Positions 2,904-54,625 of a stretch of 64,000 bases of DNA are shown one piece after another. The notes beneath the pieces are model-generated. The model was not told the DNA's origin. It made no database searches and saw only the letters and a program-made list of their open reading frames with translations. Every line of letters begins with the position of its first letter. Positions within the stretch are counted from its first letter, which is position 1. Source of the DNA: a virus (taxonomy: Duplodnaviria > Heunggongvirae > Uroviricota > Caudoviricetes); IMG/VR virus record IMGVR_UViG_2711768037_000005, positions 1-64,000 of that record, one strand, 5' to 3'. A program made the translations under genes and the position numbers.

Positions 2904-3050
2904 TTAACAGCCATTGATTCTCGCCTAAAAATTCTAAGGCAGCACCAACCATTTAACCTTTACACAGCAGCCGTAGGCATTTAGGCTATATCACATATAA
3001 GAAAACAAGTTGTTTCAGACAATAATAATAGACGCAAAGGGAACTCTCCA

Positions 3051-3719
3051 ATGACCAAGATCTTTGTGGTTGGCGGCACAAAGGGCGGGCCTGGCAAATC
3101 CACCGTTGCCCAGCAAATTGCCGTTTGCCTGAAAGTCAAAAAGAAGAAGAAGGTTTATATTACCGATATAGATATTCAGCGCACGACAACGAGCTGGTGT
3201 GAAGACCGTCGACAGAACGAAAACCTTGAGCTGATTCCTTTTGCATATGTTCAGGATGACATCATTAAGCATCTAAAATCGCTTCAGGGTAGAGCTGAGT
3301 TTGTAGTGGTAGATGCTGGTGGCTTCGACTCCGAAATTCAGCGACAAGCGATGCTGATGGCTGACGTTATCATTATCCCGCTGCGTCCTAAGCGTCGTGA
3401 TTTGAAATCTTTACGTGACATCGATCCTATTATCGACAATGTTCGCAATGTAAACGATAAAGTGAAGGTCCGTGCGGTCATGAACCAGTGCCCGGCTTTG
3501 CCATCACAAGTGTCTCGCATTCTGGCGGCTAAAGAGATTGTCGAGACGTTTGGCATCGAGCCTGCGCCTGTCAATCTATATAACCGCAACGTCTACGATG
3601 ATGCGGAAGAGTCTGGTCGTTCTATCTTTGAAATGACCGGTAGCGAGCGCGACAAAAAGGCGGAAGCCGAGTTTGAAGAATTTGTAGATTATCTATTGAG
3701 TCTGGAGGAAGAAGAATAA
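3051..3719 (+). CDS. parA: ParA/MinD-family partition ATPase (small ParA type)
   Basis: Deviant Walker A GGTKGGPGKST at N-terminus; 222 aa; stop overlaps start of a small downstream gene. Confidence 0.75.
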   Translation: MTKIFVVGGTKGGPGKSTVAQQIAVCLKVKKKKKVYITDIDIQRTTTSWCEDRRQNENLELIPFAYVQDDIIKHLKSLQGRAEFVVVDAGGFDSEIQRQAMLMADVIIIPLRPKRRDLKSLRDIDPIIDNVRNVNDKVKVRAVMNQCPALPSQVSRILAAKEIVETFGIEPAPVNLYNRNVYDDAEESGRSIFEMTGSERDKKAEAEFEEFVDYLLSLEEEE

Positions 3720-4078
3720 TGTCCATGAAAATGGGTGACCTAGCAAAGCGCAAAGAACCAGATGCACTGGCCAAGAACACAACTCCTTTGCGCCAACCAG
3801 TCAGACCACAGGGACGCCCGACTCGTGGCAAAGAGAAAATTAAAAGCCGCACAATGTCGCTGGAGGACGAATACTTTGAACTTCTGGAAATGATGAAGTG
3901 TATCCCTCGCTTCGAGAAGTTCACCCGTTCTGATGTGATTCGCGCAGCCATTTTCCATCTGGCAGAGAAGTCACCGCAGGAAATCGAGGACATTGTGAAA
4001 CTTAACGAGGCGATCACAGCTGCCGATGTAACGATGCGTACCGATGAAATCAAGCGAGAACTCATGAAAAAAGGCTGA
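3719..4078 (+). CDS. small ribbon-helix-helix-like partner protein (ParG/ParB-like centromere binder), putative
   Basis: Translationally coupled to parA (TAATG overlap); 119 aa with basic N-terminus and RHH-like segment MSLEDEYFELLEMMK. Confidence 0.4.
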   Translation: MSMKMGDLAKRKEPDALAKNTTPLRQPVRPQGRPTRGKEKIKSRTMSLEDEYFELLEMMKCIPRFEKFTRSDVIRAAIFHLAEKSPQEIEDIVKLNEAITAADVTMRTDEIKRELMKKG

Positions 4079-4108
4079 CAACTTCCGGTCTGGCAGCTTC
4101 AATCAGAA

Positions 4109-4166
4109 CCTGTTTCTGTATATAAATAATAAGTAACTTATTATTTATACGGAAGCAGGTCTTTTA
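4109..4166. terminator. large AT-rich hairpin with T-run; likely bidirectional terminator
   Basis: CCTGTTTCTGTATATAAAT ... ATTTATACGGAAGCAGG inverted repeat then TCTTTT; near-identical element at 50821-50893. Confidence 0.45.
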
Positions 4167-4267
4167 AAAGAAACCCACCAGAACAACTCCCTTCCGTTTT
4201 CACTTCCAAAAACTGACACCAGTCGCTATCATCCGCTCATTGCAATAAGTAAGTAACAACCTACCTG

Positions 4268-5017
4268 GTGAGCCACATGAGCCAAATCTTTTTCGATACC
4301 ATCGACAACGACCAGTACGACTTCATGACAGAGTGGAATACCGCTGTTATGGACAAGTGGGTCGCTGAAAACATTGGTTTGTCGCGCTGTAAAGACGAGG
4401 CTGAACTCTTCGAGACGAAGTGGTTTGATTACCGCGACATGCATCCTCTGATGGCCACCTGTCTTTTTACGGAGGCATACAAACGTCAGTACTCAAATAT
4501 CATGCTGACGCACGGTCGTGAACACTTTGAAACAGCTCCGTTCACCACCGGGTTAAAACGCCTGCCTTATCAGGAGTTGTCGACTGCTAATAAAACGTCG
4601 CTATGGAAAGCACGCCAGTTTGCGGATCGCTATTGCTGCTCATACGACTACTTTATCTCCACCGTTCTTTCCGCAGCTGCACGACGGCTGTGGGACAAGC
4701 TGCCGCGCCCACAGCATTTATGGCAGCCAGAGCTGGTTGAGATATTCGAAGAGAAATTAGCCAGACGCGCAACAACACGTCTAGATGATTCTCTGATTAG
4801 CTTTAAGCATATGGGAGACATGCAGTTCAACCCGATTCAGGAAAGCTATTTTGAGTGGATTCTGGAGCGTTTGCGCACTATCCCTCGCAGCAAGCGCATA
4901 CGCGCAATTTTCTCCGCTATCTGGTTAATGGAAATCGTTCCAGAACGCCTTATTTCCGCCCACTTTCCAGAAGAACTGGAAGAAGCACGGCGGTTTATTG
5001 ATCCCCTATCTAATTAA
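4268..5017 (+). CDS. hypothetical protein (position suggests a helicase-associated factor)
   Basis: ORF track; immediately upstream of the helicase gene. Confidence 0.45.
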   Translation: MSHMSQIFFDTIDNDQYDFMTEWNTAVMDKWVAENIGLSRCKDEAELFETKWFDYRDMHPLMATCLFTEAYKRQYSNIMLTHGREHFETAPFTTGLKRLPYQELSTANKTSLWKARQFADRYCCSYDYFISTVLSAAARRLWDKLPRPQHLWQPELVEIFEEKLARRATTRLDDSLISFKHMGDMQFNPIQESYFEWILERLRTIPRSKRIRAIFSAIWLMEIVPERLISAHFPEELEEARRFIDPLSN

Positions 5018-5060
5018 CTAATGCTAGAAAACAATTTGTTTAAAAAACAAAGGAAAGCAC

Positions 5061-52546: not shown

Positions 52547-53041
52547 ATGGCACGTCAAACCTATTTCACTTCTGCAACTAAACGTCCTCGTTCTTTACGT
52601 CAAATTTTGGCCGAATTATTTAGCGGTCGTGTTATGTCACGTCTTGATGAACTAGAGACTACCGTTAGGTTGCTGAATGAACGTTTAGATAATCAAGCGT
52701 CAGTTGTTGCGAACGTGGGGGCGATTGTTGCCTCTGGTTCTTCACGCGAAGCGAAAAGTACACGGCCTTTAGTGAAGGAGAAAAACAACAAGGACAGTTC
52801 GAATGGAAAATTTTCAAAGAAAGAGGCTGAAACCAATGGCCTACGTTCTCATTATAGTTTCACTGGCGACGGTAGCCGTTCCAGCCGGCCAGAGCCTTTT
52901 GATGCCGGATTCATCCATCACCACACCTCCGTCGACGACAATTACCACCACTCCAGTAGAGCGTCCTGTCACTCTGGATGGGATGACGGTGGATGCGATA
53001 CCTCAAGTTCATCCAGTTACTCAGGATCATGTTGTGATTAA
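52547..53041 (+). CDS. hypothetical protein, Ser/His/Cys-rich C-terminus
   Basis: ORF track. Confidence 0.3.
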   Translation: MARQTYFTSATKRPRSLRQILAELFSGRVMSRLDELETTVRLLNERLDNQASVVANVGAIVASGSSREAKSTRPLVKEKNNKDSSNGKFSKKEAETNGLRSHYSFTGDGSRSSRPEPFDAGFIHHHTSVDDNYHHSSRASCHSGWDDGGCDTSSSSSYSGSCCD

Positions 53042-53332
53042 GGCGGTTGTATGAATTTTTTTTCAAATCACATCGGGAAAATTTGGTTGGCGATTCTAAT
53101 CCTCATGTCTTCTGGTTGGGTATCGAACATTATAAAACTCGTTTGCTCTGGTGATCTCCAGTTCCAGGCTGGCATGACTCTGGCTCGTGTAGTTGGGATT
53201 TTTGTTTTTCCAGTCGGTTCGGTACTTGGTTATTTCTGACGGCTGTTAGACCAAATGCATTGACCATCTTTGCGTAAGCAATTTATGTAACTAAAAAACA
53301 ACTTGTTTTAACAAATAACAAAAGGAAAACAC

Positions 53333-53761
53333 ATGTTAGGTTTCTTCAAAAAGAAAACTCGTAAAGCTGTTATCGAAGTTAAAAAAATGGAGAACCGTGA
53401 TGCGGTTGAAGCAACCGTGTGGGGCGCGTACATGATCTCCTATTCAGACGGCACATGTGATGCAAAAGAAATTGCCATTCTTGAGAAGACAATTTCTGCT
53501 CTGCCTGAGTTTTCTCCGTTTGCAGGTGAGATTGCCCAGATGAGCGCAAACATTCGCTCTCAATACGAAGCATCACCACGCCGAGCTAATGCACAGGCTT
53601 TACGTGAGCTGGCTGATGTATCCGGGACCAATGATGCAGTAGATGTTCTGTGTCTGTGCATTGATATTGCCGATCAGGATGGTATTGGCGAACAAGAGGA
53701 GCTGGTGCTGAAAAAGATTGCCCAGGCACTTCAGTTGTCGCTGGATGCTTATCTCCAATGA
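53333..53761 (+). CDS. hypothetical protein, possibly TerB-like
   Basis: Weak resemblance to TerB-type helical domain (CIDIADQDGIGEQEELVLKKIAQAL); AACAACTTGTTTTAAC palindrome and conserved start context upstream. Confidence 0.3.
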   Translation: MLGFFKKKTRKAVIEVKKMENRDAVEATVWGAYMISYSDGTCDAKEIAILEKTISALPEFSPFAGEIAQMSANIRSQYEASPRRANAQALRELADVSGTNDAVDVLCLCIDIADQDGIGEQEELVLKKIAQALQLSLDAYLQ

Positions 53762-53919
53762 TCGAGAGATTCCGGCTTGTGATCGTCATTGCTCTTTTGG
53801 TGATGGCTGTGTTGGTGGATTTTACGGGAAAGATGATGTCTGTCATTTCTGATGGCGTCCTTATTGGTCTGGCGATCTACTTCGTTTATCCATTAGTCCG
53901 TAAAGCAACGTGTTAATGA

Positions 53920-53946
53920 CAAGGGCCAGATGGCCCTTGTGTTTCG
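53920..53946 (+). terminator. rho-independent terminator
   Basis: CAAGGGCCAGATGGCCCTTG followed by TGTTTCG. Confidence 0.5.
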
Positions 53947-54055
53947 TTGACCGAAATAGATAGTTTGCGCCTTTACGTTTAGCTTTCTCCCCTTTTATGC
54001 AACATCACAATAAAGCCAATAAGAAAACAACTTGTTTAACCATTAGGAAAAACAC

Positions 54056-54625
54056 ATGTGCAAGAAATGCAAAGCGATAGCTGATGAACAAAACGCCCTA
54101 TTAGAAGAAATGGATGCTAATGAACTGGTCAAAATGTTAGCCATTCTTCGAGGAATAGAAGACGTTTCCATATTTGAGAGAGTGGTTACAGCACTTAATT
54201 TTGAGTCCACCTTTGAAGAGCCAACTCAGGTTGTAGCTTTAGCACATCATTTCGGTGTTCATTACCTTGCTGAAAAAGAGAGAGCCGATAAGTTGCAAGC
54301 GACTTTGGATATGGTGAGCGAGACTCAAGGAACTCATGACGGTAACAAAAGTGAGACGATTATTGCCAGCAAAGATCGTGAAATTGCCGGGCTTAAATCC
54401 TCTCTAACGATGTTGATGTCTGCATTCAATCTGATGTCTTCTCAGGCGGGTTATAAAATGCCATCACTAAACAGCGACGATCCGATGGTAGTTCGTCAGC
54501 TTTTAGGAGCAATGGCTGACCAACTCGACGACACAAAGAGTCGCCTTGAAGACATGATGCGTGAGTTAAGCCATCGACATAACCTCGCAACACAACCACA
54601 CAAAGCCTTTCAAAGCTCTAATTGA
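54056..54625 (+). CDS. hypothetical protein
   Basis: ORF track; conserved palindrome and start context upstream. Confidence 0.45.
   Translation: MCKKCKAIADEQNALLEEMDANELVKMLAILRGIEDVSIFERVVTALNFESTFEEPTQVVALAHHFGVHYLAEKERADKLQATLDMVSETQGTHDGNKSETIIASKDREIAGLKSSLTMLMSAFNLMSSQAGYKMPSLNSDDPMVVRQLLGAMADQLDDTKSRLEDMMRELSHRHNLATQPHKAFQSSN

Follow-up and report, generated by a model that had tools for sequence, protein, structure and literature searches.

Several plasmids and plasmid-prophages spread one operator or centromere-like sequence over many promoters. The lytic and replication genes of the plasmid-prophage P1 are scattered, have promoters of their own, and answer to the C1 repressor through one operator repeated at more than 12 places, P1 operators being asymmetric 17-bp sites (ATTGCTCTAATAAATTT). 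In RK2/RP4, the 13-bp palindrome with a free center (TTTAGCSGCTAAA) of the KorB (KorA) system is present in about 12 promoter copies, including that of the partition operon, and the KorB and KorA regulons coordinate maintenance with gene silencing. The phage-plasmid N15 carries dispersed single palindromic SopB sites near phage promoters; its four centromere sites are bound by a type Ia ParB-family protein. Here we analyze a stretch of 64,000 nucleotides of Caudoviricetes DNA (the window; positions 1 to 64,000 of IMG/VR record IMGVR_UViG_2711768037_000005) and describe a 13-bp dyad, AAACAAnTTGTTT, which we name C2. We favor the view that C2 is the operator of a dimeric repressor encoded by the phage-plasmid itself, a protein for which we can offer a candidate only.

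The Escherichia phages Cyrano, CMS-2020a, and PhiR41_1 match a 6-kb piece of the window at 98.4–98.8% identity, and Salmonella phage SSU5 and several Klebsiella phage-plasmids match it at ~76%; over the whole window, the alignment with Cyrano is a mosaic of blocks at 84–98% identity. The window is part of an SSU5-like phage-plasmid, with an overall identity to Cyrano of 95–99%. Within it, AAACAAnTTGTTT is present in four exact and four one-mismatch copies. The exact pattern AAACAAYTTGTTT gave four sites in the window and none in 100 shuffles, and for copies with up to one mismatch a Markov-1 model predicts 0.47 per window and 0.14 per intergenic-sized sample. The initial annotation had named an equal density in coding sequence as the observation that would count against its palindrome; instead, all eight copies with at most one mismatch (8/8) are intergenic, in a window that is 85% coding. 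Between the palindrome's end and the ATG lie 16–35 nt. All six gene starts at which the palindrome had originally been listed do carry it, four as exact copies (3003, 5029, 53296, and 54025) and two with one mismatch (29557 and 43080). The count of six was too low, since further copies lie at 17143–17155 and 58568–58580 (one mismatch each) and at 55657–55669 (two mismatches).

The copies in the window precede genes of varied function. The site AAACAAGTTGTTT, with the 5' flank ATAAGA (3003–3015, + strand; pattern read on the minus strand), is an exact match 35 nt upstream of the parA ATG (3051) and is identical, flanks included, in Cyrano, SSU5, and the Klebsiella phage-plasmid pJN2-26. A second exact match, AAACAATTTGTTT (5029–5041, +), lies 19 nt upstream of the ATG of a DnaB-like helicase (5061). 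Upstream of a CobT-like gene (17175) is the one-mismatch variant AAATAATTTGTTT (17143–17155, +), which has perfect orthologues in SSU5 and pJN2-26. Two other one-mismatch variants are AAACAATTTGTTA (29557–29569, +), which follows a -10-like TATTAT upstream of gene 29586 (a DUF1281_C protein), and TAACAACTTGTTT (43080–43092, +), upstream of nrdB (43123) and conserved in Cyrano and SSU5. The exact dyad AAACAACTTGTTT is present twice, upstream of a TerB/TciA-like gene starting at 53333 (53296–53308, +) and of gene 54056 (54025–54037, +). Finally, the decayed dyad AAACAAATCATTT (55657–55669, +; two mismatches) stands upstream of a DUF4942-type gene (55685), the promoter of which has a perfect C2 in SSU5 (82468) and pJN2-26 (19224).

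Two of these promoters have additional symmetrical elements close by. At nrdB, an extra abutting inverted pair, TTGTTTAAACAA (43062–43073), lies 6 bp upstream of C2, giving five consecutive half-sites; the pair is largely kept in Cyrano and SSU5 (one base change each, in the right half) and is unrecognizable in pJN2-26. Just upstream of the cobT promoter, positions 17089–17121 form a stem, CTGCGCGAA-N15-TTCGCGCAG, with no T-run after it, that is kept in SSU5 by compensatory changes (CTGTACGAA...TTCGTACAG).

The layout of C2 promoters was derived from 46 sites in five genomes, aligned on the dyad center. The twelve dyad positions are 91–100% conserved and the center base is free (G14/T12/C12/A8); the triplet directly 5' of the dyad is AGA in 93–96% of sites, and the 3' side shows only a preference for A. 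A T at -20 from the dyad center is present in 98% of sites and closes hexamers such as GATAAT, TATTAT, GAAAAT, and CACAAT, with the modal -10-to-center spacing of 20 in 17 of the 46. The -10-like hexamer is preceded by TGn in 17/46 sites, mostly as TGnGATAAT and in the accessory early region of Cyrano, SSU5, and pJN2-26; farther upstream of the -10 lies a -35-like TTTTaCGCC. Assuming the usual 7-nt distance from -10 to start, the dyad would span about +8 to +20, centered near +14. Twelve further sites constitute a second type (type B), in which the dyad is fused to a -35-like TTTTCTaCC. At six promoters, the type B copy lies exactly 51 bp upstream of the downstream site or its remnant. The window example (58568 and 58619) is the dual arrangement that serves gene 58636 (58568–58631, +): an upstream dyad AAATAAATTGTTT (58568–58580, one mismatch) fused to the -35-like TTTTCTACC, an extended -10 (TGTGAAAAT), and a half-site AGAAAACAAC (58616–58625) within a decayed type A position, AAACAACGGAGTT (58619–58631), 51 bp downstream of the upstream dyad. 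The accessory-region unit is stereotyped and consists of a terminator hairpin, an optional upstream dyad, a -35-like element, TGn-GATAAT, ACACCAACAAGA, the dyad, a Shine-Dalgarno sequence, and the ATG; the upstream parts of the housekeeping promoters in the window are individual and weaker.

Folding of six leaders as RNA gave minimum free energies of 0 to -4.5 kcal/mol and z-scores of -1.1 to +1.3, and the dyad paired with itself in the minimum free energy structure of only one of the six. Because no stable RNA fold was obtained and the type B copies lie upstream of the predicted start, we conclude that C2 acts as DNA. A reading of the palindrome as an RNA hairpin, serving as an mRNA stabilizer or riboregulator, was rejected, the fold being neither stable nor specific in the six leaders.

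C2 is not confined to this element. Matches with at most one mismatch number 22 in Cyrano, 20 in SSU5, and 17 in pJN2-26, and lie mostly in intergenic promoter regions, with one or two in coding or promoter-distant positions. The promoters that share C2 across the relatives are those of parA, the helicase, cobT, nrdB, tciA, the CYRAN_87 homologue, and the DUF4942 gene, together with the terS leader; the regulon comprises about 20 promoters per genome. A dense series of C2 sites precedes small genes of the accessory region at 93–98 kb of Cyrano, beyond the window. In a distant Klebsiella element (CP027615), C2 is kept at the parA and helicase promoters. The syntenic Moellerella plasmid NZ_CP093251 has no C2 regulon. 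The terS leader contains C2 in two tandem copies in Cyrano (L001 57–130) and SSU5 (56–130) and in one copy in pJN2-26 (38628), followed by a GC-rich terminator-like hairpin with a TGTGTGTTTT tail; this arrangement suggests that the late-operon (terS) leader is under termination/antitermination control besides the dyad.

Where orthologous promoters have diverged, C2 has been retained. In alignments of the regions upstream of the helicase and cobT, the conserved islands are the block AGAAAACAAnTTGTTTA and the Shine-Dalgarno sequence, and the stretch from the upstream gene to the dyad has diverged; the central base of C2 changes freely in both alignments. Upstream of the helicase, a five-genome alignment shows AGAAAACAAnTT-TTTAA to be invariant save for the center base and one G/A column (SSU5: TTATTT), and the -10 region diverges. 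When IMG/VR was scanned with AGAAAACAAnTTGTTT, SSU5-like contigs came up, frequently with more than one copy each. The other matches were mostly single and in AT-rich contigs, a few having two to four copies; we regard the single matches in AT-rich contigs outside SSU5-like elements as mostly due to chance. Two annotated gene starts in Cyrano are affected by the position of C2. The annotated start of CYRAN_105 (Cyrano 95805) is an ATG inside the dyad variant AAACATGTTGTTT, and the true start is more likely the next ATG in frame, which follows AAGGA 21 nt farther downstream. For CYRAN_110, too, annotation has set the start upstream of the gene's own C2 promoter.

Published RNA-seq of a Cyrano lysogen gives the expression of these genes in the prophage state. 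The median over the prophage genes is 9.8, and the first genes behind C2 promoters read 5.7–25.5 (supplementary table of PMC9928086): terS 7.1, helicase 21, cobT 7.8, CYRAN_58 5.7, nrdB 12.9, tciA 7.0, CYRAN_87 7.1, CYRAN_101 7.5, CYRAN_105 12.8, CYRAN_106 12.2, CYRAN_110 6.7, and CYRAN_111 25.5. The exception is the parA operon, with readings of 50, 89, and 55 (PMC9928086), the only C2 operon that is clearly on in the lysogen. C2 genes are silent in the lysogen apart from that operon, and because several C2 promoters have a near-consensus extended -10, this silence points to repression. The other dispersed palindrome of these genomes (a 20-bp dyad, C1, described below) is absent from the early-region promoters, which makes C2 the obvious candidate for their operator.

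The initial annotation had suggested that the palindrome is a regulator-binding site or a promoter element. Four results support this idea: the copies are confined to intergenic DNA, keep a fixed distance to the -10-like hexamer, are conserved between orthologues amid diverged flanks, and have a free center base. The data narrow it to an operator-type site at about +8 to +20, as opposed to a core promoter element, and extend the regulon from six to about 20 promoters. We therefore think it reasonably probable that C2 is an operator for a dimeric repressor carried by the phage-plasmid. Bound at about +8 to +20 of sigma-70-type promoters, many of which have a TGn-extended -10, a repressor dimer would either keep RNA polymerase off the promoter or prevent its escape. 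Where a further copy covers the -35, 51 bp upstream, the two could be occupied cooperatively. In the plasmid-prophage state, the regulon (the parA operon, helicase-primase, cobT/S, nrdB, tciAB, the terminase-operon leader, and small accessory early genes) would be held off. We infer the mode of repression, the start sites, and a dedicated binder.

Turning to the identity of this binder, the parA operon itself (3051–4078, +) supplies the leading, if unproven, candidate. It comprises a ParA-type ATPase (3051–3719, 222 amino acids; Pfam matches to MipZ, AAA_31, and ParA) and an overlapping gene for a 119-amino-acid protein (3719–4078) that has no Pfam match. The second reading frame begins at the parA stop, an arrangement of a short Walker-type ParA with a small, translationally coupled gene; the gene for the 119-residue protein is present on 797 plasmids in PLSDB. 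We tentatively nominate this 119-residue protein as the C2 binder. A more specific form of the repressor–operator reading names it as the presumed centromere-binding partner of ParA, binding the ~20 dyads both as operators and as centromere-like sites, in the manner of KorB of RK2, omega of pSM19035, or the SopB sites of N15; partition would then be coupled to silencing. This form is possible, with the balance of probability lying against it. It is consistent with the overlap of the gene with the parA stop, with the conservation of the protein (90–92% in SSU5 and pJN2-26, exceeding that of ParA itself in pJN2-26), with the perfect and fully conserved dyad in the parA leader, and with the expression of the parA operon in the lysogen (50–89 against a median of 9.8), as negative autoregulation predicts. 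The protein contains a segment, KIKSRTMSLEDEYF...RSDVIRAAI, that follows a basic disordered tail and looks like a ribbon-helix-helix by eye, and an AlphaFold2 model has two helices in the right places. Fold and profile tests for a ribbon-helix-helix were negative or without a clear outcome. Against the proposal, only a single dyad (3003–3015) lies upstream of parA, with no type Ib centromere repeat array, and TAGGC repeats upstream of parA offer an alternative target. The presumed reading segment is invariant in every homologue found, and the dyad is unchanged in a lineage in which the 119-residue protein is only 48–50% identical, which makes covariation with the binder uninformative. The fuller claim, that this ParA partner marks ~20 centromere-like sites and silences early, replication, and terminase-leader promoters, is somewhat more doubtful again. 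If the partner does bind C2, plasmid partition would be coupled to silencing of the lytic program, and loss of the partition or copy-number signal would derepress that program, a plasmid-to-phage switch specific to phage-plasmids.

Other proteins were considered as binders. The XRE repressor of the window (16229–16615) has the C1 palindrome rather than C2 in its own leader, and SSU5 retains both motif classes without having this repressor. Two ParB_N proteins of Cyrano, encoded beyond the window, have lysogen readings of 5.0 and 9.5, which is background; ParB-like proteins were ruled out as the C2 binder in the lysogen, as they are not expressed there. Also beyond the window, two further candidates are CYRAN_117/SSU5_123, a small lysogen-expressed protein with a ribbon-helix-helix-like look, and CYRAN_114, of the FljA family. 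Presence/absence profiling against Moellerella left ~29 genes, none with a recognizable DNA-binding domain except the FljA homologue.

The C1 dyad mentioned above is 20 bp long (consensus ATAGGTAAGtaCTTACCTAT), differs from C2, and is the more frequent of the two; it is presumably the first cassette of the initial annotation. Its copies in the window start at 65, 4129, 4245, 7679, 8556, 11197, 16642, 24884, 28404, 32446, 35953, 40637, 45347, 50184, 51223, 52398, and 57370. In most cases, C1 stops a few bases short of a TGTAAGAAT-type extended -10 and would thereby lie over the -35/spacer region. A lenient scan (up to 5 mismatches of 18, a threshold that admits some chance matches) gave 26–30 matches per genome and about 26 in the window, of which roughly a dozen are close. 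Copies are also found between structural genes in Cyrano, SSU5, and pJN2-26, and one copy lies in the leader of the XRE repressor gene (16615, minus strand).

A number of observations weigh against reading C2 as a repressor operator. The seven type A sites of the window all lack a TGn-extended -10, the extended form being found mostly outside the window, and a generic -35/-10 sigma-70 scan detected no canonical promoter upstream of the C2 sites in the window. At parA and nrdB, alternative -10 hexamers (TATAAG and TAAGAT) would set the dyad on +1 instead of +14, and the transcription start sites behind C2 promoters are in general predicted positions. The silence of C2 genes in the lysogen is correlative. 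Moellerella, although devoid of a dyad regulon, has the candidate reading segment of the 119-residue protein in unchanged form. Finally, because the AGA 5' flank is asymmetrically conserved and ATAAGAAAACAA, the left half with its flank, recurs on its own in Moellerella, part of the C2 signal may be promoter-intrinsic. With either choice of -10, the predicted position of the dyad is downstream of the -10 and within the RNA polymerase footprint, which is the position of a repressor and not that of an activator.

A promoter-intrinsic signal would be an alternative without any repressor site, in which AGAAAACAAnTTGTTT would be an initial-transcribed or discriminator-type sequence read by RNA polymerase or by a modifying phage factor, and the block might set start-site choice, pausing, or promoter escape. 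The fixed register to the -10-like hexamer and the one-sided AGA flank suit such an element, as do the three intergenic places in Moellerella, one of them upstream of parA, where ATAAGAAAACAA is found without the right half. We nevertheless consider this explanation unlikely. Strict dyad symmetry around a free center is the signature of a dimeric DNA-binding protein; some copies of the dyad lack the AGA flank, and copies that cover the -35, 51 bp upstream, are beyond the reach of transcription; and in the lysogen these promoters are silent even with good -10 elements.

A further alternative places the signal in the mRNA, and its assessment requires the second feature that the initial annotation had pointed out, an almost invariant sequence before start codons. 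The ten coordinates it gave are indeed ATG codons of long open reading frames preceded by RGAAA(A)(A)CAC or close (one-base) variants, and three further genes, at 5061, 6483, and 24988, belong with them. This start context, RGAAAAACACATG, is real at 11–13 gene starts. The expression [AG]GA{2,7}..C[AG]CATG has 12 matches in the window, with 11/11 opening reading frames of at least 40 amino acids on the coding strand, and CAC occupies positions -3 to -1 in 14 of 79 called genes where ~1 is expected (binomial P = 7e-13). In the Cyrano genome, AAAAACACATG is the most frequent 11-mer. The fuller consensus, (A)CAAAGGAAAAACAC-ATG, combines a moderate Shine-Dalgarno sequence (AAGGA) with an A/C spacer; since it contains only A and C outside the GG, it is unable to pair with itself, and the folded leaders were unstructured.

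On the + strand, the start context is read as CAAAGGAAAGCACATG at the helicase (5047–5063), AAAAGAAAAACACATG at the primase (6469–6485), AAAGGAAAAACGCATG at 19365–19381, AAAGGTAAAAACACATG at DNA polymerase III alpha (20781–20797), AAAAAGGAAAGCACATG at 24423–24441, CAAGGAGAAACACATG at a gp32-like single-stranded DNA-binding protein (24974–24990), ATAGGAAAACACATG at 28442–28458, AAAAGGAAAAACACATG both at 32138–32154 and at nrdB (43109–43125), AAAGGAAAAATACATG at an SbcD-like gene (36071–36087), AAAAGGAAAACACATG at 53319–53335, TTAGGAAAAACACATG at 54042–54058, and AAGAGAAAAACACATG at 57418–57434. It is confined to the DNA-metabolism part of the genomes, where promoter-proximal genes use it, with a bias toward genes after an intergenic gap (11/51 against 1/28, P = 0.047).

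The proposal that the start context forms one cassette with the palindrome did not stand: it is a separate feature, found behind C2 promoters in four cases, behind C1 promoters in about five, and elsewhere behind neither, and the compact C2 cassettes of the accessory region have GGAG-type ribosome-binding sites without it. Orthologues keep the start context with A-runs of varying length, and it is also present at the cobT and helicase genes of pJN2-26, where the sequence differs from that of the window; this conservation or re-creation in orthologues favors selection over inheritance of one cassette. The Moellerella relative gave no match. The start context is probably a uniformly efficient, structure-free initiation region with a translational role; less likely, an RNA-binding repressor, for example the FljA homologue, controls the uniform AAGGAAAAACAC-AUG leaders as a translational regulon.

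Applied to C2 as well, that thought yields an RNA-level operator, in which the dyad and/or the A-rich start context would be the target, in the 5' untranslated region, of a translational repressor, either the FljA homologue or a RegA-like protein. CYRAN_114 (Cyrano 100780–101301, minus strand; beyond the window) is a member of the FljA family (PF03614, E = 1e-80), retained in SSU5 and pJN2-26 and missing from Moellerella, a genome with neither motif; FljA is known to repress fliC post-transcriptionally, acting on its mRNA (PMC2652032). In layout, the Salmonella/Citrobacter fliC leader AATAAcaTCAAGTTGTaattgaTAAGGAAAAgatcATG resembles C2 cassettes such as gccAATAAgaaaACAACTTGTttaaccatTAGGAAAAacacATG, the two having a CAAGTTGT core and TAAGGAAAA-N4-ATG in common, and the limitation of the start context to replication-type genes recalls the targets of T4 RegA. 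The fliC leader, however, has 4/12 mismatches to the dyad, a similarity that by our estimate chance would give in roughly one leader in six and that on this estimate is not significant, and AAGGAAAA is a common Shine-Dalgarno context. Furthermore, the dyad forms no stable RNA structure, its upstream copies over the -35 are not transcribed, and the window holds no antisense partner of the start context. The FljA homologue is more simply a host-directed flagellin silencer. As for RegA, no homologue or RegA-like reading frame was found by tblastn with one RegA query (best E = 1.0), a weak test. We consider regulation of this kind quite improbable.

Least probable of all, in our judgment, is a site for a host transcription factor, by which the dyad would recruit a regulator of the Enterobacteriaceae and tie phage-plasmid genes to host physiology: the motif is identical in Escherichia, Salmonella, and Klebsiella elements and missing from the Morganellaceae relative, as this would predict, but we know of no E. 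coli regulator with the C2 consensus (the KdgR, PhoP, MatP, and KorB motifs differ in sequence or spacing), the literature search did not return the C2 sequence, and the viral-contig matches outside SSU5-like elements are mostly single and in AT-rich DNA.

Nearly all genes of the window are on the + strand, and they begin with lysis genes, parA, helicase-primase, ligase, three tRNAs, an integrase, and the XRE repressor, continue with cobT/S, DNA polymerase III alpha, recombination genes, and repA with iterons, and end with sbcCD, nrdAB, thyX, dam, and a block of small genes. An Rfam scan of the window matched the three tRNAs and nothing else. Positions 12862–15000 are not shared with Cyrano and encode a 637-amino-acid protein with DUF1737, SASA (sialate O-acetylesterase-type), and DUF6645 domains; they stand where Cyrano has a segment that holds CYRAN_43, a gene with extremely high expression. 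The iteron ACCGCTGACAGCATAC forms arrays at 33191–33769 and 34865–35000 that flank repA (33770–34984, minus strand), and GGATCTAT-type repeats follow at ~35040–35100. In the region 42900–58700, canonical sigma-70-like matches number 17, against 28.2 ± 6.0 in shuffled sequence; the element seems to avoid chance promoters there. The 584 bp at 51224–51807 contain no convincing open reading frame and have no Rfam match; the Cyrano counterpart is annotated as CYRAN_81, of 44 amino acids, which is 98% and 91% conserved in SSU5 and pJN2-26, respectively, and has a lysogen reading of 117 against the median of 9.8. This conservation and the high reading suggest that the region encodes an abundant non-coding RNA.

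SSU5-like phage-plasmids are very common in Escherichia, Klebsiella, Salmonella, and Enterobacter and carry resistance genes, and their regulatory circuit is essentially undescribed; our literature search found no paper on SSU5-type operators and none containing the C2 dyad sequence. New here are the definition of one of two genome-wide operator classes, its placement relative to promoters, a list of its regulon, and the silence of that regulon in the lysogen. The lysis–lysogeny and plasmid-maintenance logic of the family is now directly testable, and the stereotyped 75-bp promoter–operator–ribosome-binding-site cassette is a ready-made reporter.

Compared with the systems introduced above, the C2 element resembles that of the P1 C1 repressor in its dispersal over separately promoted genes, and differs in having a perfect dyad of 13 bp near +14 and in that two separate dyads (ATAGGTAAGtaCTTACCTAT and C2) are dispersed; no homologue of the C1 repressor turned up, no search aimed at one having been made. 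C2 shares its length, free center, and presence at the partition operon with the KorB palindrome, yet it has no sequence relation to TTTAGCSGCTAAA, the lysogen expresses the ParB-family genes of Cyrano only at background level, and KorB sites lie upstream of or far from promoters rather than at +14. In omega of pSM19035 and ParG of TP228, as here, a small partner, in their case a ribbon-helix-helix protein, follows a short Walker-type ParA, with an operator in the par promoter, and omega also regulates several unlinked promoters; their operators, however, are arrays of short direct or inverted heptad or tetramer repeats, whereas C2 sites are single 13-bp dyads. The dispersed single sites of N15 are alike in distribution; a link between the C2 dyad and partition is putative.

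The lac operator O1 (centered at +11) is likewise a dyad just downstream of the start, in the polymerase footprint. Unlike those of classical helix-turn-helix operators, the half-sites of C2 abut, with their centers only 7 bp apart; in geometry, the 13-bp matS site, which MatP reads as a ribbon-helix-helix dimer, comes closer, and this half-site spacing is one reason why the ribbon-helix-helix-like candidates deserve attention. The PeSL modules of T4 are also stereotyped terminator–promoter–ribosome-binding-site units next to small variable early genes, and the T4 RegA operators, like the start context, are a shared initiation-region sequence on replication genes; we found no sequence relation to either, and the C2 cassettes carry an operator. 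The C2 dyad thus falls outside the P1, KorB, and type Ib centromere families, although in function it would work like the operators of P1 and RK2 and in placement it resembles lac O1.

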